The notes under the pieces are model-generated. The model did not search any database. It was not told where the DNA came from and saw only the letters and a list, made by a program, of their open reading frames with translations. A program made the position numbers and the translations under genes. Below are positions 6,808-26,904 of a stretch of 64,000 nucleotides of DNA, one piece after another; position 1 is the first letter of the stretch, and each line of letters opens with the position of its first letter. The stretch comes from Minisyncoccia bacterium (GTDB taxonomy: Bacteria; Patescibacteriota; Minisyncoccia; Phycocordibacterales; UBA9973), in contig JBAQFC010000010.1 of the NCBI GenBank assembly GCA_049287045.1, positions 14,179 to 78,178 of the forward strand, read 5' to 3'.

Positions 6808-7004
6808 AATTGATTTTTGTTTTAATTAATATATTTAATAAATTCTACTTCGACCATCTTTATTATATTATTTTAAATAAAAACTGTCTATGAAGTTTTT
6901 CCAGATGTTGGACGTCTAGAAATAAAATAGTTAATTTTTGACTTTCTTAGATAAAACACGTAGAGTTAAAAAAAATAATTCATTCACAATTTAAAACTAC
7001 AGCT

Positions 7005-8114
7005 ATGTCAGAAAAAATCAACAAACTCAGTCCAGGCCTCCAGGCCAAAATTTTTACAGGAGAAAGGGATTACAAACCTGATCCAAATACACCCGTGTCG
7101 AACTTTTTAGCCCATACAAAACGCCATTGCAATGGCGGCAAGACAGTAGATGCCGGCATTTGGCTCAGAGATCATTGTGATAATGGTGGAAAAATATTCT
7201 TGACCATGTCAGGAGCAGGGTCTTCTTTCCAACAGGGAATTATGATCAGTGAACTAATACGTGCAGGTAAAATTGCTGCTATTAGTGTCACTGGTGCTAA
7301 TTTAGAAGAAAGCCTTTATCGTTTGGTTGCAAATTCTCATTATGCGTATATTCCTGATTATATGGAGTTAACACGTCAGGAGGAAAAGGAATTAGCGCAA
7401 GCAGGTTTCAGAAGGATTACCGATACATTTCTTCCAGAAGAAGAATCAGTCAGAATTGTGCTTCCAGCTAAGGAAAAATTATGGCGCGAAGCTGAAGAGA
7501 AAGGAGAAAGCTATTTTTGGCACGAATATTTTTTTCAGCTTTTTGAACGAAAAATGATTGAATTTGATCCAACAGCAAATCCAGATGATTGCTGGTTGTA
7601 TCAAGCTTGGTTACATAAAATTCCTATTTTTATACCAGGAATTGAAGATCAAACGATGGGTAATATTTTCACATATTTTTGTTACAAAGGAAATCATCCT
7701 GTACTCAAAAAATATGCTCAAGATAAACCTATTAGTCAAAAAATAATAAAATACGGATTTGACTATATGCACAGTCTTGCTGAGTGGTATTTAGATAATA
7801 CCAAAGAAAAAGGATTAGCCTTTTTACAGCTTGGAGGAGGTATTGCCGCTGACTTTCCTATTTGTGTCGTTCCCCATATTAAAAAAGATTATATGGATGG
7901 ATTCTCTGAAGAAGAACAGGAAAAGGTTGTTCGTTCTTGGGCTGGATTTATAGAAATACATAATGCTACCATGTCCTTTGGATCTTACTCCGGCGCAGGC
8001 TTCAAAGAAAAGATTACCTGGGAGAAGTTTGATGTCGATGCATATGGTATACAGGTATGCGGGGACTATACAGCACATTTTCCTGATATAGCTGCCTTGG
8101 TTTTAAGAAAATAA
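7005..8114 (+). CDS. Deoxyhypusine synthase-like (homospermidine-synthase-like) protein
   Basis: 369 aa with MSGAGSS...ISVTGANLEE, which resembles the DHS family NAD-binding region. Assignment is from motif memory only. Confidence 0.45.
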   Translation: MSEKINKLSPGLQAKIFTGERDYKPDPNTPVSNFLAHTKRHCNGGKTVDAGIWLRDHCDNGGKIFLTMSGAGSSFQQGIMISELIRAGKIAAISVTGANLEESLYRLVANSHYAYIPDYMELTRQEEKELAQAGFRRITDTFLPEEESVRIVLPAKEKLWREAEEKGESYFWHEYFFQLFERKMIEFDPTANPDDCWLYQAWLHKIPIFIPGIEDQTMGNIFTYFCYKGNHPVLKKYAQDKPISQKIIKYGFDYMHSLAEWYLDNTKEKGLAFLQLGGGIAADFPICVVPHIKKDYMDGFSEEEQEKVVRSWAGFIEIHNATMSFGSYSGAGFKEKITWEKFDVDAYGIQVCGDYTAHFPDIAALVLRK

Positions 8115-13070: not shown

Positions 13071-13149
13071 GTCTTATATTGTAACATTATTATAATTTTC
13101 ATAAATAGTGCCTTAGGCGTTATTTATTGTATCTATTTATAACCCAGAC

Positions 13150-13196
13150 GTGAAGTAATTGTGACCTAATTATAAGAAATATAAGGTGATTTGAAT
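13150..13196 (+). repeat. Degenerate cassette-repeat copy
   Basis: gtgacctaattataagaaatataaggtgatttgaat compared with gtgaccc...attgtaagtaatataaggggatttaggg. Confidence 0.3.
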
Positions 13197-13236
13197 ATTT
13201 ATATGAAAAATAGATAAAAATTGATAGAATGTAGTT

Positions 13237-13869
13237 ATGAATCATAAAAATTCTAATTGCACGATTTATATTGTCAGACATGGTGAGACTGAATTCAATG
13301 TTGCCAATATTATGCAGGGTCATACTGATTCACCATTGACTGAAACTGGAGTTAATCAGGCAAAAGCATTAGGTGAAGTATTTAAAGACATAAATTTTGA
13401 TGTCGTTTTCTCTTCAGATTCATTGAGAGCTCGACGGACAGCAGAATTTATTCTTTCTGATAAAAATTTAATGATTAATACATCAAAGATTTTAAGAGAA
13501 AGAAATTATGGAAAATATGATGGTGGAGCAGCTAGTATTTTTAGAGAGGAAAATAAAGATAAATTTGAAAAAATAAAAACACTTAATCGTTTCGAGAAAA
13601 GAATGATAAATATTACACCCGATGTTGAAAGTGATGAGGAAATGTACAATAGACTGGTTCCTCTTCTCAGGGAATTGGCTGTAGCACATACAAACAAAAC
13701 TGTTCTTGTAACTACTCACGGTGGTATTATTCGTGTATTGCTCAGTTATTTAGGATGGAGTGGTGAAGAAGACCTAAAATCTGGATCTGTAAAAAACACA
13801 GCATATGTTAAATTGTTTTCAGATGGAACAGATTTTATTATTGATGATGTTCAAGGAGTTGATAAATAA
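13237..13869 (+). CDS. Histidine phosphatase family protein (phosphoglycerate-mutase-like)
   Basis: RHGETEFN catalytic motif at the N-terminus and a TTHGG(I) motif near the C-terminus. Confidence 0.7.
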   Translation: MNHKNSNCTIYIVRHGETEFNVANIMQGHTDSPLTETGVNQAKALGEVFKDINFDVVFSSDSLRARRTAEFILSDKNLMINTSKILRERNYGKYDGGAASIFREENKDKFEKIKTLNRFEKRMINITPDVESDEEMYNRLVPLLRELAVAHTNKTVLVTTHGGIIRVLLSYLGWSGEEDLKSGSVKNTAYVKLFSDGTDFIIDDVQGVDK

Positions 13870-13872
13870 TAA

Positions 13873-14233
13873 GATGGCTAAAATATATGTAGCTGGTAAA
13901 AATCTTGAAAGAGCACGCTCTGTGATGGATATGTTAATAGAAAATGGTCATTTGATTATATTTGATTGGGTAAAAGATATTAAAAATGAAGAGGACCCTT
14001 TTCAAAAAGCTCGTGATGAACGTGAAGCGGTTAAACAAGCAGACATACTCGTTTATCTTTGGGAATCAGACCAAGAAAGTGCAAGATATGAAGCTGGTAT
14101 GGCGATGGGTCTACATAAACCCATTATAGTTTCTGGGTTTAAAAATAAATTATTTTTTCTATCCTTGCCAGAGGTGATAAATGTATTAGATGATAGTGAA
14201 ATTATTTCTGTGCTTGAAAAGATAAATTTATGA
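13873..14233 (+). CDS. Nucleoside 2-deoxyribosyltransferase-like protein
   Basis: KIYVAG N-terminal motif and ESARYEAGMAMGLHKPIIV, which parallels the NDT-family DSGTAFELGYA.GKP catalytic-Glu segment. Confidence 0.45.
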
Positions 14234-14268
14234 AAAAATTAGTAGAGCGGAGGCGTTGCTTCGCTCTA

Positions 14269-14326
14269 GACACAAACGGGACGGAATTGGGATCTGATTT
14301 TATGAATAAAAGGGGATTTAGAGTCT
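14269..14326 (+). repeat. Cassette repeat copy R1, preceded by a GC hairpin (14244-14268)
   Basis: cacaaacgggacggaattgggatctgattttatgaataaaaggggatttagag. Confidence 0.6.
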
Positions 14327-14371
14327 TAATTAGTTATGCATTAGCAAGTTGAATTCAGCCTTACGGTCAGA

Positions 14372-14399
14372 TTGACAATTATATTAAATATGCTATAAT
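14372..14399 (+). promoter_or_regulatory. Consensus promoter TTGACA-N16-TATAAT
   Basis: attgacaattatattaaatatgctataattg. A GGAGG ribosome-binding site (14433-14439) and the ATG at 14444 follow. Confidence 0.6.
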
Positions 14400-14443
14400 T
14401 GACTCAGGTAATTTTGCCTAGATCTTTTAAAAAAGGAGGAATA

Positions 14444-15052
14444 ATGTATCTCATTTCTGTTTGCACTGCCTCTGTTATTTTGATGGCTGGTAGTTTCTGG
14501 TATTGTTACCAGATTTTGCGTGAAGAGGTACATCCACCTCCCGCAACATTTATAATATTGTCCTTCACATTTCCACTTGCACTTTATTTGTATACTCAAA
14601 AGCCCGATTGGAGCTTTTCAGCAAATATTGGACTAACAGTTGGAGTTGTGAGTGTATGGGTAGTTAGTGTATTTCTAATCGCAAAGCTTTTTATCCAAAA
14701 GAAATTAAGCATTGAGGTAAATCTCTTTCAGAGAATAACGATATTAGTATCACTTATAATATTATTATTTTGGTTTATAACAAAAGACCAACTCACTGCT
14801 TATATCCTTCTTCAAATTTCTGCTCTTGTTAGTTATATACCAGTAATCAAAAATCTTTGGAATGCAGAAAAGAATCGTGATTCAATTATGTTTTGGGGTT
14901 CATTATTTCTTTCTACTTGTGTTGCTTCTTATGCCGCATATGAAAGAAATGATATCCAATCCTGGATTTACATAATTAGGGCGATTCCATCAACAATGGT
15001 AGTCCTATTAATGATGATTCGAATAGAATTAAGACAAAAAGCCTTGCGATAA
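14444..15052 (+). CDS. Integral membrane protein (6-7 TM; possibly PnuC-like nucleoside transporter)
   Basis: Multiple hydrophobic segments, preceded by a strong promoter and ribosome-binding site. Family assignment is speculative. Confidence 0.45.
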   Translation: MYLISVCTASVILMAGSFWYCYQILREEVHPPPATFIILSFTFPLALYLYTQKPDWSFSANIGLTVGVVSVWVVSVFLIAKLFIQKKLSIEVNLFQRITILVSLIILLFWFITKDQLTAYILLQISALVSYIPVIKNLWNAEKNRDSIMFWGSLFLSTCVASYAAYERNDIQSWIYIIRAIPSTMVVLLMMIRIELRQKALR

Positions 15053-15090
15053 CATCAAAAGGCTTTTTTTATTTCTAAAATGGTAAATTT

Positions 15091-15140
15091 GTGTCCTAAC
15101 AGGACGGAATTGGAATCTAATTTGTAGGGGATATGAAGGT
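15091..15140 (+). repeat. Cassette repeat copy R2 (divergent)
   Basis: gtgtcctaacaggacggaattggaatctaatttgtaggggatatgaaggt. Confidence 0.5.
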
Positions 15141-15250
15141 ATTTTGTTTATTAACTCACGATTATAGCTCTCAAATCTTTTTAATGTATGATATTGGAAA
15201 TAAAAAACTCCACTATTTTTTAGTGGAGTTTAATTTTAAAATTGTAGTAT

Positions 15251-15724
15251 TTACAAACGATAAACATCAGGAAATATTTCTTTTTTATTCTTCAATCTTT
15301 TTTCTATTTCGTTAAAAGGCAAATTTTGATTTTTCAGTTCTATGTAGGTTGGACTGTATGCTTTTATTTGTTCACAAAAACTTTCTCTGGAATTATGAAT
15401 TATTTGCAACATATCTCCAACTTTAAAAATGGATGGAATAAGACCATCATACGCAAATTTTTGCTGAGACCCGTGACTTTCAAAGTATTGAGGAATAACC
15501 TTGTTTAGAATAAAAGCCTTATCGTCTTTATTGCAATATTCATACTTACCTCTATCAAAAAGTTTACTGTCTCGAAAAAGATTAATCATAACCTCATGCT
15601 GATTTTCCTGACCCTTCGGCATAAAGTAGATACTTTTGATTACATCAAAAACCTTTTTCGTTTTACGGTTAAAAAAAAGTAATTCTTTGTCATGTAAAAT
15701 GACACGTATATTTTCTATGTGCAT
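15251..15724 (-). CDS. Hypothetical protein (157 aa)
   Basis: ORF with a downstream terminator hairpin (15203-15237). Divergent from the 15869 gene across the conserved promoter motif. Confidence 0.35.
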   Translation of the reverse strand: MHIENIRVILHDKELLFFNRKTKKVFDVIKSIYFMPKGQENQHEVMINLFRDSKLFDRGKYEYCNKDDKAFILNKVIPQYFESHGSQQKFAYDGLIPSIFKVGDMLQIIHNSRESFCEQIKAYSPTYIELKNQNLPFNEIEKRLKNKKEIFPDVYRL

Positions 15725-15789
15725 TTTTAAAAATATTAAGTTTTTATGGCAAAATTGCCTACAATATTATTTGTTCGAACAATATCACA

Positions 15790-15831
15790 AAATTATTGAC
15801 AGGTCAATGATTTATTGGTAATCTATTATAA
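15790..15831. promoter_or_regulatory. Conserved bidirectional promoter/operator motif with palindromic TTGACagGTCAA (copy 2)
   Basis: acaatatcacaaaattattgacaggtcaatgatttattggta. TTGACA-N17-TAATCT is present on the plus strand. Confidence 0.45.
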
Positions 15832-15868
15832 ATAAAAATAGTTTTTAATCAATTAAATATCGTAGAAA

Positions 15869-16639
15869 ATGAAACAGAAAAAAGCTTACATTGGTGTTAC
15901 GGGATTCATGTCTTCCCAGGAAATAACCGATACCCTTAGAGGTATTGATTATAAAAAAACAGACAGGTTGATTATGGTTGGTGTTCTTGCAAGTTTTAAA
16001 ACCTTGCAAGGAATTGCCAATAAATGGGTTAATCGTTATCCTTTAGTAAATGAAATTGCAGGTATTTTTCAACCAAATGAAAATTTCCTAAATTTGATTC
16101 ATTTTAATACTAAAGAACTGAATACATTTTTTGCTCAGCTTATTCAGATAAATGACTTAGCTGGTGATTCTTTTAATGGTTTCCAGTTAAACATTGCTTG
16201 GCCTGATCCTAAAGTATTAGAAAAATACAAAAGATTATGCCCTGACAAAAACATTGTTCTTCAAATTGGAGGAGGAGCCTTTGAAAAAATATCTCATTCT
16301 CCGGTAAAACTTGCAGAAAAAATAAACAATGAATATGCAGGTCTCATTGATTATGTTTTACTTGACCCAAGTGGTGGTACTGGAAAACAATTTGATCCAA
16401 TAGTTGCCAGGGGTTATTTGGAGGAATTAAGTAAACATGAAAATGACTTTGGTTTGGGTGTTGCCGGAGGATTAAGTTCTTCAACATTGAATCTGATTGA
16501 ACCTCTTGTTAAAGATTTTCCAAATATCAGCATTGATGCTGAAGGAAAATTAAGAACATCAGAAGATCATTTGGATGTAAATGAGGCAGGTTCTTACATT
16601 AAAAAATCTTTGGATTTATTTTCTATTTCAGTTATTTAA
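15869..16639 (+). CDS. Phosphoribosylanthranilate isomerase (TrpF)-like TIM-barrel protein
   Basis: C-terminal region LLDPSGGTGKQFD...GVAGGLSSSTL...ISIDAEGKLRT matches the TrpF motifs LLD..GGTGK.FDW, AGGL..N and D.SSGVE. Confidence 0.5.
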   Translation: MKQKKAYIGVTGFMSSQEITDTLRGIDYKKTDRLIMVGVLASFKTLQGIANKWVNRYPLVNEIAGIFQPNENFLNLIHFNTKELNTFFAQLIQINDLAGDSFNGFQLNIAWPDPKVLEKYKRLCPDKNIVLQIGGGAFEKISHSPVKLAEKINNEYAGLIDYVLLDPSGGTGKQFDPIVARGYLEELSKHENDFGLGVAGGLSSSTLNLIEPLVKDFPNISIDAEGKLRTSEDHLDVNEAGSYIKKSLDLFSISVI

Positions 16640-16701
16640 AAATCTCCCTAACAGGGAGTAAACCTATGGTACCAAAAGTATCATAGGTTTTTTTATTATC
16701 T

Positions 16702-16762
16702 GTGTGATTCAAACGAGACGGAATTGGAACTAGATTGTAGGAAATCTAAGGGGATTTAGGGT
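16702..16762 (+). repeat. Cassette repeat copy R3
   Basis: gtgtgattcaaacgagacggaattggaactagattgtaggaaatctaaggggatttaggg, preceded by two terminator hairpins. Confidence 0.6.
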
Positions 16763-16811
16763 TTTCAATTAAAGTGTGGCATTTGCTTATTGAGCTTGGA
16801 GTACTAATACT

Positions 16812-16839
16812 TTGACAAGTGCTGATTTTGTGCTATAAT
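16812..16839 (+). promoter_or_regulatory. Consensus promoter TTGACA-N16-TATAAT
   Basis: tttgacaagtgctgattttgtgctataatt. Confidence 0.6.
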
Positions 16840-16915
16840 TATCCTTAGATTAAAGGTGATGAAGCTACCTATAAATGATTCATAAATAAATAGTTTTTTA
16901 ACATTCAAATACGAA

Positions 16916-17551
16916 ATGCTCATGAAAAAAATTGAGAATGTCGGAAAGTTTGCAAAGCATACTACCGAAGCACATAATGCGCTTTTAAAAGCGATCCCAT
17001 CTTGGGTTTACGAAAAAAATATGCAATATGGAATTATTGGAAATAAAAACCTTCCGAATATTATGGAGGATGTATTTAGAAAAATTTATGAAGGAAGTAT
17101 TAGTTTTTCTTTTGGAATACGTCAAACATTCATAGATAGTGATATTCCAATGTGGCATAATGACTTTTTCTCATCTATTATTAGTGTTTCAGGACACAAA
17201 ATAATATCAACCAATGAAGTAGAAGAACTTTCTAAATATGTTGTATCAAAGACAGGAATGAATGATTCTTTAATCCAAGATAAAGTTAGAAGTGGATTTC
17301 TAGAAGAAGATTTATTTTTTGCAATTCTTTATCTTTTAATTTTCAAACCAGAATCTGGTAAAGAATTTTTAAACCTTGAATTAAAAAAGGATAAACTTTA
17401 TCTCTTCCATGTTAATTTAGATTCTCTAAAAAAAGTTTCGATAACAATATTCTGGAATGATGGTAAGTGGATGTTAAGTGCGACTGATTTTAATTTTATT
17501 TCTTCTTGGGATGAAGGACGCATCTTTGTTTATTTTTGTAGAAATTATTGA
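16916..17551 (+). CDS. Hypothetical protein (211 aa)
   Basis: Cassette ORF with its own promoter and a terminator (17570-17605). Confidence 0.4.
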   Translation: MLMKKIENVGKFAKHTTEAHNALLKAIPSWVYEKNMQYGIIGNKNLPNIMEDVFRKIYEGSISFSFGIRQTFIDSDIPMWHNDFFSSIISVSGHKIISTNEVEELSKYVVSKTGMNDSLIQDKVRSGFLEEDLFFAILYLLIFKPESGKEFLNLELKKDKLYLFHVNLDSLKKVSITIFWNDGKWMLSATDFNFISSWDEGRIFVYFCRNY

Positions 17552-17611
17552 TTCCTTAAAGAATCATTTTTAGAAACCATAATCCAAAAAAGGATTGTGG
17601 TTTTTTTTATT

Positions 17612-17668
17612 TGTGACCCAAATAGGATGGAATAGGAACTTTATTGTGTCGAATATAAAGGGCTTTAA
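17612..17668 (+). repeat. Cassette repeat copy R4
   Basis: tgtgacccaaataggatggaataggaactttattgtgtcgaatataaagggctttaac. Confidence 0.55.
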
Positions 17669-17794
17669 CTCTCAATTATGAAAATACTATTTTTTTGACA
17701 AGTAACCTTAAAAGTTGTAGTTTATAGTCAAACGTACCTTTATAAATATTTTGTGTATTTAACTAACAATACTAACAATTTAATAAATAGAAAA

Positions 17795-18460
17795 ATGAAA
17801 ACAAAAATCAAACTAATTTTACCTAACAATGGTATTGTTCTTAATTTACAGCAAGGAGAACGGCTTTACTTTTTAGCTGGTCCTATTAGTGGAGCCGGAG
17901 ATTGGCAGGCAAATGCAATAAAGATGTTAGCAGAAAAAGATCCTAATTGTTTCATTGTTTGTCCTTGTAGATATGATAATACTCATGAACTATTTCAGTT
18001 TTCATTACCACCTACCTATGATGAGTTAATAAGTGATGATGAAAGAGAAAGTCCAACAAGAACATTGCAGTTCCAAAATCAAACAATGTGGGAACGACAT
18101 TATTTAGAACAGGCATCTTACTTTGGTTCAGTAATTTTTTGGCTTCCTTCTGAAGATTCAGAAAATCCACGCAAGAAAGAAACTGGCCCGTATGCTCGTG
18201 ATACTTATGGTGAACTTGGTAGATGGAGCTTAAAAAGTTCAAAGCCAGATCAATTTTCAATTCATAATTACAAAGGTAAAATGGTTAACCTTACTATTGG
18301 TGCTGAAAAAGATTTTCATGGGTTAAGTGTAATTCAAAAGAATTTTGATGCTGACCATGGTGAACCTTTTCCAATTTATTCAACGCTTGAGGAAACTATT
18401 TCTGAAGCAGTAAAGCTTGGTAAAAAGACAAACCCGCAACCAATGATGATGAATGATTAA
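17795..18460 (+). CDS. Nucleoside 2-deoxyribosyltransferase-like / DUF4406-like Rossmann protein
   Basis: LYFLAGPISGAGDW plus ARDTYGELGRW, an NDT-like YLAGP ... DxGTxFELG pattern. Start set at the internal ATG at 17795. Confidence 0.4.
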   Translation: MKTKIKLILPNNGIVLNLQQGERLYFLAGPISGAGDWQANAIKMLAEKDPNCFIVCPCRYDNTHELFQFSLPPTYDELISDDERESPTRTLQFQNQTMWERHYLEQASYFGSVIFWLPSEDSENPRKKETGPYARDTYGELGRWSLKSSKPDQFSIHNYKGKMVNLTIGAEKDFHGLSVIQKNFDADHGEPFPIYSTLEETISEAVKLGKKTNPQPMMMND

Positions 18461-18526
18461 TTTTTTTTAACTAAATTTAAAACTGCAGTTTCCTAATGGA
18501 GATTGTGGTTTTTTTTATTTAAAATT

Positions 18527-18612
18527 TTAATACGCTTCTCGTGCTAGCACGTGATGGTGACCCAAACGGCACGAATTAGAACCAGATTGTAAGTAACATA
18601 AGGGGATTTCAG
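18527..18612 (+). repeat. Cassette repeat copy R5 (longest), with a 5' extension containing the palindrome CGTGCTAGCACG
   Basis: aatacgcttctcgtgctagcacgtgatggtgacccaaacggcacgaattagaaccagattgtaagtaacataaggggatttcag. The 5' part aatacgctt matches the flank downstream of tRNA-Glu at 26823-26831. Confidence 0.6.
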
Positions 18613-18620
18613 ACTTTTTA

Positions 18621-18649
18621 TTGCTAAAACATAAAATAAGTTGTAATGT
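18621..18649 (+). promoter_or_regulatory. Repeat-associated promoter TTGCTA-N17-TAATGT
   Basis: ttgctaaaacataaaataagttgtaatgt. Confidence 0.5.
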
Positions 18650-18700
18650 AAAGAAAAATTCAGTACTAACTGGAGCATTCGCTCTTTAAAATTAAATAAA

Positions 18701-19123
18701 ATGGAAAAGCACAATTCACATGGTCCATTCCATTTAGAAGATGGAAAAGTAATTAGCAAAGAAAAATGGCTTGAATTTTTTAAAGTTATTTTAGAAATGG
18801 AACGTTCAGGTTCAAATCATTTTGTATTTGATATTGGTATAGCTTGTTATTTTGATAATCTTTCTTATTATTCTGGTTTAAATAATAGAGAAAAATCACT
18901 TTTAAATCTCAAAAAAATGTTAGAGGAACTAATAATTACTTATAAGGTAAGTGAAAATGATGTTGATTCTATCTATAATTTAATTGATCTATTACTTGAG
19001 TGCCATCTTGAACCAGCTGGCTATAAAGTTTTTGCAAAGAAAGTGAAAGATGAAATTTGTCATATACCAAATTCTCGAAAGAAAGAAATTTTGGTTCTAA
19101 CTATTGATAAAAATTTTAACTAG
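18701..19123 (+). CDS. Hypothetical protein (140 aa)
   Basis: First gene of a two-gene cassette. Confidence 0.4.
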   Translation: MEKHNSHGPFHLEDGKVISKEKWLEFFKVILEMERSGSNHFVFDIGIACYFDNLSYYSGLNNREKSLLNLKKMLEELIITYKVSENDVDSIYNLIDLLLECHLEPAGYKVFAKKVKDEICHIPNSRKKEILVLTIDKNFN

Positions 19124-19147
19124 TACAAACAATCTAAATTAAAAAAA

Positions 19148-19573
19148 ATGTGGGACCATCGTAAAAATACAAGGAGGGAACATTGGTATATTTATGAAAA
19201 ATTACCTTTTAAGCCTCATCGTCCTGAATATGGTAAAGAAAAAATTATTTGGGAGACCGATATAATTATCGACCACGATACGACAGAATTTGATAAATAT
19301 AATTGTTTTGACGAGGTGTTGCGTGATAAAACTGAGCAATTCCTTGTGACAGATATTATTTATGAACCATTGTTTAATGATGGTGATAATTTTGGTAAGT
19401 GGGTAATAAAATTACATAAAATTGAAAATGGTAAGTTGACCAAAAAGTATCAAACAAGATATGAAAGTCGAGCATCATTATCAATACGTTTTGTAAAAAA
19501 AGCTAATTACAAAGAAGTATCAATAATGAAAGAGGAGTACATAACTCTTATAGTTAATTCAGACAAAAAATAA
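19148..19573 (+). CDS. Hypothetical protein (141 aa)
   Basis: Second gene of the cassette. A terminator hairpin lies at 19590-19608. Confidence 0.4.
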   Translation: MWDHRKNTRREHWYIYEKLPFKPHRPEYGKEKIIWETDIIIDHDTTEFDKYNCFDEVLRDKTEQFLVTDIIYEPLFNDGDNFGKWVIKLHKIENGKLTKKYQTRYESRASLSIRFVKKANYKEVSIMKEEYITLIVNSDKK

Positions 19574-19611
19574 TTTCAAAACCTTCCTTAAACAAGGAGG
19601 TTTTTTTATTT

Positions 19612-19668
19612 GTGACCCAAACAGAACGGAATTGGAACCTTATTGTAAGTAATATAAGGGGATTTAAG
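19612..19668 (+). repeat. Cassette repeat copy R6
   Basis: gtgacccaaacagaacggaattggaaccttattgtaagtaatataaggggatttaag. Confidence 0.6.
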
Positions 19669-19722
19669 ACTATGTTTACATATTAAGCTAGTATTTTCTG
19701 GTTTAAGTGGTATATTGTACTT

Positions 19723-20418
19723 ATGTCACAAGAATTTAATTTTAAACTTGAGCCAATACATACAACAAAAGATTTAGATGCATTAACAAAGTCTAATAAT
19801 CAAAAATACGGTGATTTTGACTCAAATACAAGGAGTCTTGATAAAAGATTTATAGATACATTCACAAATACACTAAAGGGTGAATTTAATAATGTAATTG
19901 TTTGTGGTGCAAATAAAGGAGAAGAAGTAAAAATTATAAAAGATATTAATCCAACCGCAGAGATTACAGCTCTTGATATTTCTGATGTTGCACTTGAGAA
20001 ATTACATAATACAGAAGGCCTCCAAGATGTAAAATGCTTACATAAAGATTTAGAGAATACAACTGCAAATGATAAACAATTTGATATATATGTTGCTCTT
20101 CGAACAATTCCATCATCAAATGTAGATATGGCAAAAGCTTTAAATGAAGCAATGAGAATTACAAAAAATAAAATAGTTCTTTCTGTTCCAAATGGATATG
20201 TAATTGATGGAAAGATTTTTAATGGAATGTACGAATATGAAGGAAAAACAATTGATAAAACTATCCCTTTCGAGATAAGGGAGGAACTAGCTAAGTATTT
20301 CGAATTACATGGCTGGGGTGTCACATATGGTGAATCAGATGGAGATCTTTTTATAACTGCTATTCCAACACCAGGAGAAAATGCACATATTCCTGATTCT
20401 CGAGCTAATTTAATTTAA
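19723..20418 (+). CDS. Class I SAM-dependent methyltransferase-like protein
   Basis: Motif I-like VIVCGANKGEEV, motif II-like ALDISD, and FDIYVALRTIP. Confidence 0.35.
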   Translation: MSQEFNFKLEPIHTTKDLDALTKSNNQKYGDFDSNTRSLDKRFIDTFTNTLKGEFNNVIVCGANKGEEVKIIKDINPTAEITALDISDVALEKLHNTEGLQDVKCLHKDLENTTANDKQFDIYVALRTIPSSNVDMAKALNEAMRITKNKIVLSVPNGYVIDGKIFNGMYEYEGKTIDKTIPFEIREELAKYFELHGWGVTYGESDGDLFITAIPTPGENAHIPDSRANLI

Positions 20419-20427
20419 TTTTTATCT

Positions 20428-20485
20428 GTGACCCAAACGGGACGGAATTGGAACCTTATTGTAAGTAATATAAGGGGATTTAGGG
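20428..20485 (+). repeat. Cassette repeat copy R7 (closest to the consensus)
   Basis: gtgacccaaacgggacggaattggaaccttattgtaagtaatataaggggatttaggg. Confidence 0.65.
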
Positions 20486-20563
20486 AATTTACAGAAATAA
20501 AAAGAGCCTCCCATGATTATGGCAGACTCTTATGTAATTAATTAAACTCACTTTATATAAAAA

Positions 20564-21160
20564 TTAAAAGCCAAGCTTTGTTCTGATTTCTTTTATAAAC
20601 TCAGGATTTCTATTTGATTCTTCAATAAAACATTTTGGTACACTTACCTGAAACTCAAAAGATGGAACATTTTTTTCATAGTGATTGTCTATATATCTCA
20701 AATAAACAGATATAGAGTGGAAAACTCTCCCTTCAAGTTTCATACTTGGCTTAACATTAAACAGAAGCCACATGTGAAAGTTTAATAGTTTTCTGTAAAA
20801 ATCCTCTCGTGCTAAACCAATGTGTGATTCTTCACTATAACTAATGTTGCATTGTTTTGTTGTTTTCAGAGAATTAATACCTATTATTCCATAGTTGTTT
20901 TCGAGATTCTTGTCAACTACTAAGATTTTGCTCATAGCTTTTGGAGCTTCAAAAAGTGTTGTACTATATACATCTCCATGTGAACGACGGAATAATTCTT
21001 TTACTCGAGATCCAGATGATTTATTAATATTAAATCCCATTAATCTTAAAATGGATTCTAGTTTTGGTTCTATCGAATATTTCGATTCAACCATTGCATA
21101 TCCATTCCATAAGCCAGTTTGATTCAACATGGCAGTTTCTAAAAAGTTTTTCTTTTTCAT
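20564..21160 (-). CDS. Hypothetical protein (198 aa)
   Basis: Cassette ORF on the opposite strand, so the repeat lies 3' of this gene. Confidence 0.4.
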   Translation of the reverse strand: MKKKNFLETAMLNQTGLWNGYAMVESKYSIEPKLESILRLMGFNINKSSGSRVKELFRRSHGDVYSTTLFEAPKAMSKILVVDKNLENNYGIIGINSLKTTKQCNISYSEESHIGLAREDFYRKLLNFHMWLLFNVKPSMKLEGRVFHSISVYLRYIDNHYEKNVPSFEFQVSVPKCFIEESNRNPEFIKEIRTKLGF

Positions 21161-21303
21161 TTTATATTTATTTAATTGTTAGTTATTAGGTTACCTTTAC
21201 TTCCTTAAAGAAGCATAGGAAACCCAATAATGAGAACAAAAAATAAAAATATCAAAGAACTATCACTAGATGTATGATAGCATAATTAAGTTAAAAAGTC
21301 AAG

Positions 21304-21361
21304 GTGACCCAAACGGGACGGAATTGGAACCAGATTGTACGGAATATAAGGGGATTTAGGG
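21304..21361 (+). repeat. Cassette repeat copy R8
   Basis: gtgacccaaacgggacggaattggaaccagattgtacggaatataaggggatttaggg. Confidence 0.65.
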
Positions 21362-21368
21362 TCTTCTG

Positions 21369-21397
21369 TTGCTAAATCATATAATAAATTGTAATGT
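21369..21397 (+). promoter_or_regulatory. Repeat-associated promoter TTGCTA-N17-TAATGT
   Basis: ttgctaaatcatataataaattgtaatgt. A GGAGG ribosome-binding site lies at 21419-21423. Confidence 0.5.
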
Positions 21398-21429
21398 AAA
21401 ATAAAAGTAAATTAAAAAAGGAGGTAAAA

Positions 21430-22044: not shown

Positions 22045-22092
22045 TCTGATCTAAAGTTCTGGGCAAAATAATTGTCCAGAACTTTTTTATTA

Positions 22093-22121
22093 TATGCTTC
22101 TCGTGCTAACACGTGATGGTG
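22093..22121 (+). repeat. Truncated cassette repeat R9, marking the right boundary of the array
   Basis: tatgcttctcgtgctaacacgtgatggtga matches the 5' extension of R5 (18530-18558) and then diverges. It is preceded by the terminator of the NlpC/P60 gene. Confidence 0.55.
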
Positions 22122-22277
22122 AACTCTATGTTAAGTTCTTTAATGACCTTGTAAAGATAATATTTAACTTTGAAAAACCATTAAATTATCAGGTTTTGCA
22201 ACAAGAGATGCTTCCCGTTTCTTCCCTTAATGGTATTTAAATACAAGGCAAATACATTTTAAAAATGTATTGTGTAT

Positions 22278-23228
22278 TTAAACCTTTTTTGGTTTATCGT
22301 ATGTATAAAGAAATTGTGCAACTTTATTAAGTTCTATGAGTAAATCTTTATTTTTGTGAAAACCAAAATTAAGAGACCTCATTAAGTTGTAAATATTTAT
22401 GGTGTGTATTGCTCCTTTGTTGTTGGTTATATCTTTTCTGTTAACTTTTTTCCCTGACTCCTGATTAGGATATCGTGCAATGATTACAATTCTTGGGCTA
22501 AGAATAAAAGTTTGTTCTCTGGATAGAAAATCATTACCAAAAAATTCTTTACTGAGGGCTATGTCTTGATAAGGTGTGTCTGTAGTAATAAAATCTCCAT
22601 TTCTTGAAACATATATTTTCCAATATTTTGCTGTAAGTAAATTACAAAACCCTTGCATATCTTTCATAATCCGTAAATGATGCATATTACCAAAATCAAC
22701 AGAGTACTCACCTTTATTCGCAAATTCAGTCATCTCTTCTTGCGTTATACCTAGTTTATCCATTTCAGCTTTTGTTTCTGGATTTTTATCCATAAAAGGA
22801 ATAGACATCTTACTAATTTCCTTTACAAAATACTCTGACATACTCTTAGATTCTTCCCTGTATTTTTTACCCTTAAAATGCAAAAACAACATACACTGAG
22901 ATAGATTAAATTTATCTCCTTCTGTAATTTGTGCATTATCTAGGATCTTCTTTTCAATTTTTGGCAATTCAATAGAAAAAATACCCTCAATTTCTGTAAA
23001 CCTTTCTTCTATTATTTGGCTAGTTTTATCTGCTTTTCCTGTATGTTGAGCATAGAAGAAGTTTTCAAAACAAAATCTAATTGGGTTTGATTTGTTATTA
23101 AATATTTTAAGTTGTGGGGGTTCTTTGTTTTCTATCTTTACAGGGTAAAAACTTTCATCTTCATCACACCATTGACGCAGATAGAATTGAGGAACATAGT
23201 GTTGCTTTTTTGTTGGTTTCTTTTCCAT
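22278..23228 (-). CDS. DUF4238-family protein (N-terminal HYVPQFYLRQW motif)
   Basis: The HYVPQFYL signature near the N-terminus is characteristic of DUF4238 (PF14022) as I recall it. Last gene of a three-gene minus-strand operon. Confidence 0.5.
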   Translation of the reverse strand: MEKKPTKKQHYVPQFYLRQWCDEDESFYPVKIENKEPPQLKIFNNKSNPIRFCFENFFYAQHTGKADKTSQIIEERFTEIEGIFSIELPKIEKKILDNAQITEGDKFNLSQCMLFLHFKGKKYREESKSMSEYFVKEISKMSIPFMDKNPETKAEMDKLGITQEEMTEFANKGEYSVDFGNMHHLRIMKDMQGFCNLLTAKYWKIYVSRNGDFITTDTPYQDIALSKEFFGNDFLSREQTFILSPRIVIIARYPNQESGKKVNRKDITNNKGAIHTINIYNLMRSLNFGFHKNKDLLIELNKVAQFLYTYDKPKKV

Positions 23229-23248
23229 ACATATAATTTTTTGCTGAT

Positions 23249-23545
23249 TTAATAGGGTTCATCTACTGTGTCCACAGTGGATAGGTTATCAAGAACATTC
23301 CCCATGTCTTCATAGGAAGACCATGCATAATCTCTTGCTTCTTCAATAATTGAATTAGCGTCCTCAATATTATTATTGGCTTCCTCAAGAGCATATTGAT
23401 ATTCTTCAAGTTGGCTTTCCTGTGAGGAAATTCTATCTTCCAACATAGCCCTTTCTCCATGGTTAGAACTTCCAGATGACCAAGAGATAATGAGTAAGAC
23501 CAGTAGGATGATTGATGTGTATTTGTATTTATTATCTGTTTCCAT
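23249..23545 (-). CDS. Small membrane-anchored or secreted acidic coiled-coil protein
   Basis: N-terminal hydrophobic segment ILLVLLIISWSSG followed by an acidic heptad-like region. 21 bp from its neighbour downstream and 8 bp from its neighbour upstream. Confidence 0.4.
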   Translation of the reverse strand: METDNKYKYTSIILLVLLIISWSSGSSNHGERAMLEDRISSQESQLEEYQYALEEANNNIEDANSIIEEARDYAWSSYEDMGNVLDNLSTVDTVDEPY

Positions 23546-23552
23546 AAATTAT

Positions 23553-26378
23553 TTATTCTTCTTTATTGGCTTCAAATTCTTCTTTTTCCTCTCTTAATCT
23601 TCTTACATAGTCTTCATCACTTCTCGCTATATCTATATCCAAGTGCTTGATTTCTTTCTTGCAGAATTTCTTTACTCTTTTATTTTTAGTTTTTTGCATT
23701 TCCTCGTTAAGGCTATTTCTTAAAGCTCTTAAAGCATTTCCATGAATATTATCCTCAGGGCTTCCTGATAAAACTCCTGTGCTTCTCATTCTACCACCTA
23801 CCGTATTCCAAATTTCTTTATTATCTGTAGCAGCAACTATTTTGAAACAAATATCAAAATTAGGTGTTTCAATAAGAGGAAAAAGAGATAAGACCTTTTT
23901 TAGGTTTATTTCTTTTTCGCTGGCAACAAGTTCTTCTAATACTTGGGTAAGTGCATTACCACCAATTTCATGAATAAGTTTTCCTAAGTCCATGGCATAT
24001 AAATCTCTACGCTCATTTACCTTAGAAATCCAAGTTTTTAACACTTTAGGATATTTCGGGTGGTCTTTAATCAAATCAGCAATATCAGTTGAAAAATGAT
24101 ATGGGAATGCAATGTATCTTGTTTCAGGTTGTTGTGCTTCTCTGTTTAGTCGTCTGCTATAGATAGACATCATCAATTCAAAATCCACCTTACCAATTCC
24201 GTTAATAACTTGTTCGTGATTATAGTCTAACTCTTGTGCTTCAACTGCTAAATCAGCCAACTCTTTGAGTTCTTCTGGTGTCCAATCTGAAAGTTCTATC
24301 CACTTAAAATGAACAGCTGTACCAATGTGGTCAAAAAAAGACTTTTCAAACTTAGGCTGACTTTTCATTTGCTCTAATAGTAATTTTCTGAAAACTTTAG
24401 GGTTAGATTCATAGAGATATGTAATGCATCTTCCAATTTGGTATTGAAGCCTTGAGTTTTCTTTATCTAGGAAAGAGAAATTATTTTGAGCCTTAGAAAT
24501 ATCAACAATTAAAGCAATGTCTTCTTTTCTTATATTTAAATCATCTCGTTTTCTCATTTCAAAGGATTGGAGTAGTTGAATGGTCAATTCAATTGATTTA
24601 TCTCTTTTAGCTTGGTTTGCATATTTATCCCATAGAGAGAGTGAACTGATTCTCAAGCCAAAGATAAAACTTCCTGCAAATAAATAAAGATCGCTTTTGT
24701 CTTTGTATATTTTCTGAAGAAATTTGTCTGTTAATTTTGGTTTACTTTTTCCTATTCTTGCCAAAAAATCACGGAATATATTAAAATGCCAATCCTCGGT
24801 ATTGTCCTTAAAAATACTTATCTTTTCCAATGTCTTGCACCATGAGTCAAGATTTTTTTCATTTATAGACTCTAAGTTACCTTTAATTTTTTCCTCTCTT
24901 TCTTTTTCTACAACATTATAGTCAGCGTCAATTCTTAAACGGTGTGGCTCTCCTACAAAGAGTCTATAAAGACTATAGTCATTTTTTGATGAACGCAGAG
25001 TTTGTAAAAGTTTTTCGTGGCCAGGTATAATACGCTTCCAAACTTTAAGCAAAGCAAGTTGACACTCTACTTCATAAACTACAGGAAAAGAATCTATAGG
25101 GTTTCCTTTTGGGTTAAGTACAATTTTTTTATATTTTCCAATAATATACTTTGCCTCTTCATCAAGCATAGAACGGAAAGCATCCTCTGCGTCACTGTCA
25201 GCAAATCCATGGTCTGGTAAATGAAAGACCCTTGAAAGACTCTTCAGGGCTTGAATTTTATTAGGGAAATTACTGCTATGTTGAATTATTTCTAATAGCA
25301 AATTAATTGAATCTTTTCTTATTTTCATTAGATACGGGGTAGCTTGAAGTGCTCCTATGTGAAAAGTGATTGTTCTCATATCCGGATTTGAAGTACCTTC
25401 AAAATCAGGTTCTAGGAGGTTTCCAAGAATCACTACTACCAAGTTTTCTATTTTTTCATCTCTCAAAGATAAAGGCTGCTCCAGAGAATCAAAGAGTATT
25501 CTTTGGGGTCCATACCCTATAGAATTCAGAACGTGGAAATTGTATTTAGAAATAGAAAGTATAACCTTTTTTGCTTGTTCCCTTATCGTTTCTTCTTTGT
25601 CCATAAGAAAGATAAAAAGGGCTTCAATAACTTTTTGTGTTTCTTGATAAGTAATTTTTTCTAAAAGTTTAATATAAGAAGATTTAGAGTCAGTATCTCC
25701 GTACTGTCTTATCTCGTTTGCAATTGAAAAAGCCAAATCTATTAATGGGAATCTTCCAGTATTTGTTCTGTAAAAAACTAATTGCTCTAGTGTTGCTAAT
25801 CTTTCCGCAGCTATGCGTTCTTGAGGAGTGCCTTTGCCAAGATCTTTAAGATATTTAGAGATTATTTTATCGTTAGATTCATTTCTGTGATGGAGGCAAA
25901 TCTTTTTCCACTCCTTGGGGTAATTTTTTTCTGTCTGGGTTATTTTGTTCTTTTCAATGAAATATATTGAAATAGTATGACTTGGAATTTGCTCCTTTTC
26001 TGCTAAGTAATTATTAATAAACTCAGGAGACAAATACGCCCAATAAGCTAGATTTTTATTGGGGTCAACCCCAATAAGTAAAACTGGTGTTGAAGAATCA
26101 TGAGCGTGCGCTAAAAGAGTTGGTTTGCATGTTGTGAATGGTTTCCCATTTTTAGTATATAAAAGTGGCTTTACTTGGACTTGTAGGGATAAACCAGACA
26201 TCTCCCTAGAATCTGTTAATAAGTGAAAATAGCCATCAATATTAGGAAAGTCATCATCTCCACCAGTAATCTGAGATATTACAGAATCATTCAGTAATAT
26301 TTCTAAAACAGCATTTTCTTTCTTCTCAATGCTTTTACTTTTGGAATATTTAGCTTTTCTTAAAATTTGCTTAGCCAT
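23553..26378 (-). CDS. Large (941 aa) protein with an N-terminal DUF4365 / PD-(D/E)xK-like nuclease-fold domain and a C-terminal alpha-helical repeat region
   Basis: N-terminal DFPNIDGYFHLL...LQVQVK...LLIGVDPNKNLAYWAYL matches the DUF4365 pattern (D.GiDg ... QvK ... yw). No Walker A motif. The remaining ~750 aa are helical and repetitive. Confidence 0.5.
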   Translation of the reverse strand: MAKQILRKAKYSKSKSIEKKENAVLEILLNDSVISQITGGDDDFPNIDGYFHLLTDSREMSGLSLQVQVKPLLYTKNGKPFTTCKPTLLAHAHDSSTPVLLIGVDPNKNLAYWAYLSPEFINNYLAEKEQIPSHTISIYFIEKNKITQTEKNYPKEWKKICLHHRNESNDKIISKYLKDLGKGTPQERIAAERLATLEQLVFYRTNTGRFPLIDLAFSIANEIRQYGDTDSKSSYIKLLEKITYQETQKVIEALFIFLMDKEETIREQAKKVILSISKYNFHVLNSIGYGPQRILFDSLEQPLSLRDEKIENLVVVILGNLLEPDFEGTSNPDMRTITFHIGALQATPYLMKIRKDSINLLLEIIQHSSNFPNKIQALKSLSRVFHLPDHGFADSDAEDAFRSMLDEEAKYIIGKYKKIVLNPKGNPIDSFPVVYEVECQLALLKVWKRIIPGHEKLLQTLRSSKNDYSLYRLFVGEPHRLRIDADYNVVEKEREEKIKGNLESINEKNLDSWCKTLEKISIFKDNTEDWHFNIFRDFLARIGKSKPKLTDKFLQKIYKDKSDLYLFAGSFIFGLRISSLSLWDKYANQAKRDKSIELTIQLLQSFEMRKRDDLNIRKEDIALIVDISKAQNNFSFLDKENSRLQYQIGRCITYLYESNPKVFRKLLLEQMKSQPKFEKSFFDHIGTAVHFKWIELSDWTPEELKELADLAVEAQELDYNHEQVINGIGKVDFELMMSIYSRRLNREAQQPETRYIAFPYHFSTDIADLIKDHPKYPKVLKTWISKVNERRDLYAMDLGKLIHEIGGNALTQVLEELVASEKEINLKKVLSLFPLIETPNFDICFKIVAATDNKEIWNTVGGRMRSTGVLSGSPEDNIHGNALRALRNSLNEEMQKTKNKRVKKFCKKEIKHLDIDIARSDEDYVRRLREEKEEFEANKEE

Positions 26379-26410
26379 AAGCCCATTCTATCACTTTTGA
26401 TTCATTAAGT

Positions 26411-26551
26411 CTTGATTTACCTGATTAAATTAGCAGTTTTAGACAATAAAAATTTTGATTAAACTTGATTTAATTCACAGTTTTAGAGCCTAAAAAAAGT
26501 TTTGATACTTTTGATATATTTACCAGTTTTAGAGACCAGAAATGATTTTGT
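26411..26551. repeat. Three tandem ~46-bp imperfect repeats (TTGAT...CAGTTTTAGA...TTTTGAT) upstream of the 941-aa gene
   Basis: ttgatttacctgattaaattagcagttttagacaataaaaatt / ttgattaaacttgatttaattcacagttttagagcctaaaaaaagtt / ttgatacttttgatatatttaccagttttagagaccagaaatgatt. Confidence 0.6.
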
Positions 26552-26654
26552 TAAGGGTAATGGGTAATGGGGACAGCCACCATTAATTTGTATTTTGTAT
26601 GGTCTAATATATTATAGGTTAACGGATTACTAAGTATAAAAGAAATTAAATTAT

Positions 26655-26830
26655 TGTTGCGCTTTGCGCACACATCAGTGTAGTCACAAGTTACTAAGTA
26701 TAATTTTTCGCCTTGCTCAAATTCTACTAAGTACTCGCGACCCCGCCTCGCCTGTCGCTTTGCGACATGGCTGCGGCCTCACAAAAGCGAAAAGGAACAC
26801 CGCAGGGTGCTCCTTTTTTAAATACGCTTT
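26655..26830 (+). ncRNA. GC-rich structured segment ending in an intrinsic terminator; candidate small RNA or tRNA 3' trailer
   Basis: Local GC is far above the genome background. Hairpins gcgctttgcgc and gtcgctttgcgac are followed by the terminator ggaacaccgcagggtgctcctttttt (26795-26830). Confidence 0.25.
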
Positions 26831-26832
26831 TG

Positions 26833-26904
26833 TGACCCTACGCGGAATCGAACCGCGATTCTATCCTTGAGAAGGATATGTCCTAACCGTTAGACGATAG
26901 GGCC
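26833..26904 (-). tRNA. tRNA-Glu (anticodon CUC)
   Basis: Reverse complement GGCCCTATCGTCTAACGGTTAGGACATATCCTTCTCAAGGATAGAATCGCGGTTCGATTCCGCGTAGGGTCA folds with a 7-bp acceptor stem, D-arm, anticodon loop TTCTCAA and a GGTTCGATTCC T-arm. 72 nt; CCA is not encoded. Confidence 0.8.

Follow-up and report, generated by a model that had tools for sequence, protein, structure and literature searches.

A candidate effector–sensor protein with a DUF4365 nuclease domain and a helical solenoid, encoded next to tRNA-Glu in a Minisyncoccia genome

DREN, the collateral DNase and RNase of the SPARDA defence system, is a nuclease of the DUF4365 family (PMC12205087). On its own DREN is monomeric and inactive, and it is filament formation that forces it into tetramers and activates it (PMC12205087). 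The DUF4365 nuclease of a short-Argonaute system, TmuRE, was inactivated by mutating Q62 and K64 (PMC10810196), and Divona, a validated Vibrio cassette protein, also begins with a DUF4365 domain. The HEAT-repeat sensor of oligomeric DSR2 binds the tail-tube protein of a phage (PMC11263360), and in Olokun the adaptin-like protein OloA forms a 2:2 complex with the PD-(D/E)xK nuclease OloB (bioRxiv 10.1101/2025.07.10.664194). Finally, a single DUF4238 protein encoded in a P2 prophage hotspot of Escherichia coli conferred strong resistance to T7 (Rousset 2022, PMC9122126). Here we analyse three adjacent genes on the minus strand of a contig from a Minisyncoccia bacterium (JBAQFC010000010.1, positions 14,179 to 78,178; this stretch of 64,000 nucleotides is referred to as the window, and coordinates are those of the window). 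They code for a 941-aa protein with an N-terminal DUF4365 domain and a long helical solenoid (the module), for a small 98-aa protein and for a 316-aa DUF4238 protein. An initial annotation had taken the three genes for one novel defence system and had called both domain families poorly characterised. The latter is at odds with what has been reported on DREN and Divona (PMC10810196, PMC12205087) and on the DUF4238 protein that protects against T7 (PMC9122126).

Our comparisons also speak against a single system. The trio is very probably not an obligate system, and we lean, with slightly more confidence than doubt, towards a cluster of independently mobile cargo genes juxtaposed at a tRNA-Glu hotspot, in which the 941-aa protein would be a self-contained effector–sensor protein. 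This protein, which lacks a nucleoside triphosphatase (NTPase) domain, may then represent an NTPase-free effector–sensor protein, possibly related to Olokun, in a large family that has so far gone unannotated.

Neighbourhoods of the three genes

The open reading frame (ORF) calls agree with the positions first assigned to the three minus-strand genes: 26378..23553 for the 941-aa nuclease–solenoid protein, 23545..23249 for the 98-aa protein and 23228..22278 for the DUF4238 protein. The genes are as tightly spaced as had been described, although the gaps measure 7 and 20 bp and not 8 and 21 bp. The cluster also has the tRNA-proximal placement attributed to it, with a tRNA-Glu(CTC) on one side (26832-26904, minus strand; ARAGORN, 60 bits with Rfam), the 3' end of which points toward the cluster, and the fragment of a cassette repeat on the other. 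Records 100% identical to the 941-aa, DUF4238 and small proteins were found at NCBI on one contig, which belongs to a Minisyncoccia metagenome-assembled genome (MAG) of the Candidate Phyla Radiation (CPR/Patescibacteria). No convincing terminator was found between the genes; this and their spacing suggest that the three are probably co-transcribed in this genome. Since promoter-like and terminator-like sites in the window were not enriched over shuffled sequences, it is the spacing that carries the case for an operon.

The neighbourhood was not conserved when approached from any of the three genes. We found 11 loci with a relative 30-59% identical to the 941-aa protein (L001-L006, L008, one JGI contig with gene calls only, and L021-L023; L007 duplicates L006), and neither gene calls nor tblastn detected a relative of the DUF4238 gene or of the small gene in any of them. 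One of these loci, L002, ends 265 bp past the relative and is for this reason uninformative on downstream genes. The DUF4238 loci L009-L012 (67-78% identity) had differing neighbours, and none contained a relative of the 941-aa gene, a module or the small gene. A metagenome scan provided 80 further DUF4238 loci (453 kb in total; 70 with a DUF4238 ORF, of which 45 had at least 1 kb upstream), in which we found no relative of the 941-aa protein or module with hidden Markov models (HMMs) and no small protein with phmmer. There was no dominant partner gene in these 80 loci, and a serine recombinase, present in six, was among the commoner neighbours. Thus, the other two genes were found at 0/11 loci of the 941-aa protein, 0/84 DUF4238 loci and 0/8 listed places of the small gene.

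The DUF4238 assignment itself proved strong. The 316-aa protein (22278..23228, minus strand) matches PF14022 over almost its full length (aa 8-285, profile positions 1-271 of 281, E 1.5e-30, 107 bits). Sixty homologs were found, and every one with a named source came from the CPR. The HYVP motif (H10-P13), E74, E81, W203, D217 and N278 are among the invariant residues of the protein. An AF2 model of the protein had a confidence score (pLDDT) of 91; Foldseek returned nothing better than E ~1 for this model in the PDB, a sequence search of PDB chains with the DUF4238 profile gave no match, and PADLOC did not recognise the window protein. We take the gene as a probable separate single-gene module of the Rst_DUF4238 kind, the protein being by its sequence a distant CPR member. 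At one locus (L012, 6001-8249) the DUF4238 gene shares 4 bp with the start of a gene for a 419-aa Mrr_cat protein, with N-terminal hydrophobic segments and a coiled coil apparent from its sequence. This locus adjoins a large serine recombinase abutting tRNA-Glu, and it is the only observed case of a DUF4238 gene directly coupled to a gene of the restriction endonuclease (REase) fold.

The small protein (23249..23545, minus strand) has, by hydropathy, one N-terminal hydrophobic segment (aa 11-25) that may serve as a membrane anchor, in keeping with its original description as a small membrane protein. This segment precedes an acidic helical tail with 19 D/E against 3 K/R residues (pI 4.05). The small protein had no significant match in Pfam, PADLOC or NCBIfam, the last being without a significant match for the two larger proteins as well. 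Only seven homologs of the small gene were found. An 80%-identical homolog is present on 21 Nomurabacteria contigs, where the gene is flanked by a divergent reverse-transcriptase gene and is then followed by an unrelated 131/134-aa gene. The acidic, presumably membrane-anchored 98-aa protein thus appears to be the product of a third independent gene.

The flanks of the cluster, unlike its content, recur elsewhere. With blastn, the tRNA-Glu of the window was found again at some of the DUF4238 loci (L009, L010 and L012) and at L013-L018, which carry the small gene. Moreover, a conserved non-coding element (22122..22277, minus strand; blastn; no ORF of at least 50 aa) lies directly 3' of the DUF4238 gene. 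This element, of about 130-155 nt, is about 80-82% identical to sequences found downstream of DUF4238 in L009 (~6952-7106) and, in L013-L019, of the unrelated 131/134-aa gene (L013 5743-5863). Because the same tRNA-Glu and 3' element flank different cargo elsewhere, the site is most simply read as a tRNA-Glu hotspot of CPR genomes at which cargo genes are swapped between conserved flanks. In Nomurabacteria, another gene stands between the small gene and the 3' element, which likewise points to replacement of genes at a hotspot rather than to a fixed operon.

The three genes could still make up one novel, lineage-specific defence system of three components acting together. Their shared orientation and narrow gaps (7 and 20 bp), with no convincing terminator in between, would fit such a system, and the Mrr-type nuclease gene directly after DUF4238 in L012 can be taken as a hint of REase-fold neighbours. 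We nevertheless hold it to be highly improbable, as the unconserved neighbourhood largely refutes it, each of the two large genes stands by itself in many genomes, a single DUF4238 protein suffices in E. coli, and the small gene and 3' element of Nomurabacteria enclose another gene. A smaller unit, formed by the small gene and DUF4238, with the membrane protein as sensor or anchor and the 941-aa protein as a separate neighbour, would agree with the 20-bp gap, with a promoter-like TTGAAG-16-AATAAT situated immediately upstream of the small gene, within the 3' end of the 941-aa gene, and with the joint occurrence of the small gene and the 3' element in L013-L019. However, the gene between those two in L013-L019 is not DUF4238, and neither L009-L012 nor the 80 further DUF4238 loci carry the small gene. 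In addition, the topology, deduced solely from the lysines that precede the hydrophobic segment, would place the acidic tail outside the cell and so apart from a DUF4238 protein in the cytoplasm. This two-gene unit is therefore also improbable. We return to the reading in which the three genes are separate cargo and consider next the largest of their products.

The 941-aa protein and the solenoid family

Residues 23-145 of the 941-aa protein (25944..26312, minus strand) form a DUF4365 domain (PF14280), matched with an E value of 5e-6 and 27.1 bits over profile positions 7-126 of 139. As the Pfam gathering cut-off is 24.3 bits, the assignment made in the initial annotation holds by a margin of 2.8 bits, a marginal pass. 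The match is supported by other members of the protein family, by a second model and by the motif residues. DUF4365 was recognised in 19/49 sampled family members, with a best E value of 2.8e-17, and the Aga_REase model of PADLOC (Argonaute-associated REase), the sole defence model matched by the protein, covers aa 46-117. The D...QxK motif noted earlier is indeed conserved, only its residues are D42, D48, Q68 and K70 and not D44, Q66 and K68, the earlier numbering being off by two. Over relatives 30-59% identical to the 941-aa protein, K70 was invariant in 17, with D42, D48 and Q68 each conserved in at least 90%, and all four residues were invariant among the 13 closest. An AF2 model of the protein has an alpha/beta core at aa 15-140. 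Together, these features show a nuclease domain of the Mrr/RecB-like PD-(D/E)xK type with a conserved DREN-type active site, in its QxK variant.

It could be argued that the domain is dead, or the match spurious, and that the protein serves housekeeping as a helical scaffold without enzymatic activity. The score 2.8 bits above the cut-off could be read in this way, as could the search of PDB chains with the family profiles, in which only non-significant DREN/DUF4365 matches were found for the 941-aa protein (E 0.26-0.53), and the position of the relative in L004 among tRNA synthetase and ScpAB genes. Against this stand the 19 matching members, the conservation of D42, D48, Q68 and K70 and the alpha/beta core of the model. 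In a search with a narrower alignment, moreover, relatives of the 941-aa protein were found in 3 of 185,579 species representatives, a patchy distribution that makes a housekeeping role unlikely. A dead or spurious domain thus seems to us barely plausible.

Past the nuclease domain, the model (pLDDT 85.4; predicted template modelling score, pTM, 0.63) is all-helical except for one beta-hairpin (aa 325-343). This HEAT/ARM-like solenoid of about 770 residues (aa ~165-939; 23562..25886, minus strand; AF2 and hmmsearch) corresponds to the long helical C-terminal part already recognised in the sequence. The absence of an NTPase motif was borne out as well, since the 941-aa protein has no Walker A motif and no match to NTPase families in Pfam, PADLOC or NCBIfam. 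Fold searches with the solenoid model returned generic solenoids only. About 15 full-length relatives, with 30-59% identity, align with the protein from M1. In an alignment of 67 sequences with a mean column identity of about 23%, R354, R743, P759 and G872 were invariant. In a Candidatus Taylorbacteria MAG (JAYTYJ010000009.1; L021 3247-6063), the 59%-identical ortholog is split into parts of 492 and 403 aa separated by a gap of about 125 nt, and may be a pseudogene or an assembly error.

The solenoid defines a large family for which Pfam, NCBIfam and PADLOC have no dedicated model. An hmmsearch of 1.84 billion representatives, which are clusters at 50% identity, gave 2140 matches at E≤1e-3, 1397 at E≤1e-10 and 587 at E≤1e-30. 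The majority of these cover only profile positions ~165-933, that is, the helical part. In the N-terminal region of the 49 sampled members we found DUF4365 (19 members), RelA_SpoT (12), TIR (one, P0232) or NB-ARC (one, P0205); the other 16 had no Pfam-recognised N-terminal domain, many of them being the module alone. The lengths follow the architectures, with about 750-820 aa for the module alone, 930-1090 aa for DUF4365 plus module and 970-1030 aa for RelA_SpoT plus module. The RelA_SpoT fusion was also found on a plasmid of Sphingobium and, on pC6.5d of Rhizobium rhizogenes (L024 6653-10585), in a 1310-aa protein that carries a C-terminal poly-gamma-glutamate hydrolase in addition. The latter is annotated only as a poly-gamma-glutamate hydrolase. 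Its neighbourhood contains genes for a 1108-aa SIR2 protein, a metallophosphoesterase, a caspase-family protein, VapBC and integrases.

The effector can also be supplied in trans: on plasmids of Legionella adelaidensis (NZ_LR134418.1, L026 6706-10127) and Pseudanabaena galeata (NZ_CP112879.1, L027 6952-10403), an upstream PIN_12 gene and a module-only gene are separated by 2 bp. The two operons come from distant phyla and have integrase, toprim and toxin–antitoxin genes nearby; the Legionella pair directly adjoins an integrase and a toprim gene. PADLOC called no system over either gene at the two loci, save for a weak match of the Pseudanabaena module to OloA. These operons are candidates for a split version of the same kind of system. 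Taken together, the family spans the CPR, Proteobacteria and Cyanobacteria, and the solenoid is paired with DUF4365, RelA/SpoT, TIR and NB-ARC as fusions and with PIN_12 in trans. A constant C-terminal body that carries interchangeable toxic N-terminal domains is a recognised mark of immune effector–sensor proteins, Avs, DSR and the partners of short pAgos among them. The searchable literature, the coverage of which is incomplete, contained no description of the solenoid family or of DUF4365–solenoid fusions.

By analogy with described systems, the 941-aa protein could work as follows. The solenoid would hold the N-terminal DREN-type DUF4365 nuclease inactive until it recognises a trigger associated with infection or with a mobile element. 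Recognition would drive oligomerisation, which would join the DUF4365 domains into an active multimer, and this multimer might cleave DNA or RNA indiscriminately, leading to abortive infection or growth arrest. We infer the defence role, the sensing of a trigger and the activation by oligomerisation from such analogies: the oligomerisation step is suggested by DREN of SPARDA, which is inactive as a monomer, and the general logic is that of DSR2. A broader claim would make the solenoid a new class of immune sensor or regulator, possibly distant kin of OloA, with at least five toxic effectors and a conserved trigger site marked by its invariant Arg/Tyr/Gly-rich motifs, and the window protein a single-chain version of an Olokun-like nuclease system in a CPR bacterium of episymbiotic life. 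We put this forward tentatively, giving it somewhat less credence than disbelief.

The relatives of the 941-aa protein frequently reside in integrative elements, and the protein could serve such an element, as an addiction toxin, as a weapon between elements or as a DNA-processing enzyme, and not the defence of the host. Large serine recombinases lie within about 5 kb of the relatives in L003, L005, L008, L022 and L023, a tyrosine integrase and a primase-polymerase accompany the one in L006, and terminase-like genes those in L001 and L003. The Legionella PIN_12 and module pair next to an integrase and a toprim gene fits the same picture, and the invariant motifs of the module could mean that its ligand or substrate is fixed. 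Such surroundings do not tell the two readings apart, however, because defence genes are common cargo of integrative elements. No relative was found in the IMG/VR viral contigs, which were scanned with the 941-aa family, and tblastn against the INPHARED phage collection gave no match for the 941-aa protein, the DUF4238 protein or a module-only protein; P0095 had no match among plasmids. Moreover, swaps of nuclease, RelA/SpoT, TIR and NB-ARC domains at the N terminus are typical of immune effectors and not of a DNA-processing enzyme. A function for the mobile element is in our view unlikely, yet it deserves to be kept in mind.

Several observations weigh against an effector–sensor protein active in defence. 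The DUF4365 score of the window protein barely clears its threshold, and no PADLOC model is matched beyond the nuclease core. The functions of the three proteins and of the solenoid family are, furthermore, predictions from sequence and model. The solenoid contains, besides several invariant residues, the motifs KYN, PSFEGTS, YDAIPY and TGVxSGxxG, and such invariance would be expected more readily of a conserved site for ligand binding or catalysis than of a protein sensor under fast evolution, which makes the trigger, and the sensor role itself, uncertain. The link to OloA is only transitive, OloA being matched by 1/49 full-length members, and 0/10 segments excised from as many members (window aa 480-830 included) matched OloA at E≤10. 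The cluster has no known defence genes among its neighbours in the window, which are phosphatase, methyltransferase, NlpC/P60, GreA-like and RmuC genes. Known defence genes were present in only some of the related loci, such as L001, with a Type ISP restriction-modification enzyme and a HEPN AbiU2 gene, and the relative in L004 has the housekeeping-like context described above. Lastly, the tight spacing of 7 and 20 bp implies co-expression of the three genes here, and a functional interaction specific to this lineage is possible.

The tRNA-Glu flank and the cassette array

On the side away from the tRNA, the 3' element at 22122-22277 marks the boundary between the tRNA-side cargo and a cassette array. 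Within the element, a long-range stem (ACCATTAA…TTAATGGT) precedes a T-run, and the similarity to the other loci ends exactly at the start of the truncated cassette repeat (…ATAGAGTT on the one side and CACCATCACGTG on the other). A terminator, a small RNA and a recombination site are all conceivable; an Rfam scan of 12-28 kb gave nothing besides the tRNA. Of the truncated repeat (22087..22122, plus strand) only the flank part is present, 89% identical to 18525-18560. The array proper (13104-21399) is made of direct repeats of about 130 nt, 0.8-2.4 kb apart, with one ORF in each spacer. There are eight full repeats (13104, 14239, 16664, 17577, 18523, 19575, 20391 and 21275) and a partial one (15095), and the repeat HMM found no copy within 22123-26831. 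The spacer ORFs code for His_Phos_1, a SAM methyltransferase, NlpC/P60, a nucleoside-deoxyribosyltransferase-like protein and several proteins of unknown function.

The core of the repeat on the minus strand (GGTTCCAATTCCGTCCCGTTTGGGTCAC) bears an apparent resemblance to the 3' end of the adjacent tRNA-Glu (GGTTCGATTCCGCGTAGGGTCAC). This likeness would point either to a tandem accretion of att sites or to cassettes of an integron-like kind in a CPR genome. The ORFs examined, from about 5.5 to 30.5 kb, did not include a recognisable recombinase gene. Both large genes of the cluster were considered for this part and rejected: DUF4238 because the conserved 3' element occurs without it in L013-L019, and the 941-aa protein because its relatives were not found beside such arrays, although no systematic search was made.

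In Nomurabacteria (L013-L020, e.g., L013 698-6410), the same tRNA-Glu hotspot holds different cargo, namely genes for a helix-turn-helix protein, a Trypsin_2 protease, two unknown proteins, a 288-aa reverse transcriptase (on the opposite strand) and the small 98-aa protein. The product of the 131/134-aa gene is a coiled-coil protein with CxxC pairs, and a conserved block, UDG–NTP_transferase–glutamate dehydrogenase–PaaX, comes after the cargo. The gene set with the reverse transcriptase may be a defence module.

On the tRNA side of the window, the region upstream of the 941-aa gene has three direct repeats spaced by about 46 nt (TCTAAAACTG…AATCA; 26441..26551, minus strand; read from the sequence), possibly an operator or promoter region, and 26443-26551 is 78% identical to an intergenic stretch of L010/L011 (blastn). 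A promoter-like site is found further upstream (26640-26611, minus strand). Between the tRNA terminator and this promoter region, 26730-26790 is a GC-rich stretch, unusual in an AT-rich genome.

Comparison with known systems

Candidate defence families of this sort are now reported in large numbers, and dissolving the three-gene system keeps a chance juxtaposition out of the catalogues of systems. What remains of wider interest is the solenoid, which is found in distant phyla in combination with nuclease, alarmone-synthetase-like, TIR, PIN and NB-ARC domains, a modularity that immune proteins typically show. Should the module be a sensor, it would provide a handle on the control of DREN-type nucleases without Argonaute. 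It would also document a candidate form of immunity in CPR bacteria, the defence repertoire of which is poorly known.

SPARDA shares with the 941-aa protein the PF14280 nuclease, and the QxK pair of DREN-APAZ/TmuRE (Q62/K64 in TmuRE) has its counterpart in Q68/K70. The 941-aa protein may further resemble SPARDA, by analogy, in an inactive nuclease that is activated by induced oligomerisation. In contrast to SPARDA, no APAZ domain follows the nuclease, as the match to the Aga_REase-PNTD1-PNTD2 model (429 positions) is confined to positions 38-112, and no Argonaute gene is adjacent in the window or in related loci. The protein therefore falls outside SPARDA. Its regulatory part is instead a solenoid of about 770 aa in the same chain, with nothing that points to nucleic-acid guides.

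The two other proteins that have a Pfam domain in common with the cluster act singly. Rst_DUF4238 consists, as does the window protein, of the Pfam domain over almost its whole length, and is the product of a stand-alone gene in variable hotspots or mobile elements. The window protein differs in being a distant CPR homolog, without a tblastn match in the phage collection and without a PADLOC match. Divona resembles the 941-aa protein in that an N-terminal DUF4365 domain is fused to an unrelated C-terminal domain, and it is a single-gene defence protein in a Vibrio integron cassette array. Here the partner is a solenoid of about 770 aa and not crr6, Divona is much shorter, and the window gene lies outside the repeat-bounded cassettes.

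Proteins of the STAND/NLR-like type (Avs, bNACHT) have a central P-loop NTPase that the 941-aa protein lacks, although an NB-ARC domain precedes the module in the distant member P0205. The layout of DSR2, a protein of about 1000 aa with SIR2 and a helical/HEAT sensor, is closer: both have an N-terminal toxic enzyme (predicted as such in the 941-aa protein) and about 700 aa of helical repeats, both are free of NTPase and both are encoded by one gene. There is no SIR2 effector here, however, and no detectable homology to the DSR2 sensor.

Olokun is distinct in that its nuclease and solenoid are separate proteins, whereas here they are one polypeptide, with DUF4365 in place of OloB, to which none of the three window proteins had a match. 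Two family members matched the OloA model of PADLOC at E 5e-9 and 3e-7, over positions ~99-387, which correspond to window aa ~515-809; the whole window protein did not match it. With OloA matched by one of the 49 sampled members and by none of the ten excised segments, any kinship would be remote at best. Nevertheless, it is Olokun that comes closest in concept: it joins an alpha-solenoid free of NTPase to a nuclease of the restriction-endonuclease fold, and its two-gene layout is mimicked by the operons of PIN_12 and module. If the module is indeed a sensor, the solenoid proteins would form a family of NTPase-free effector–sensor proteins that takes its place beside DSR2 and Olokun.

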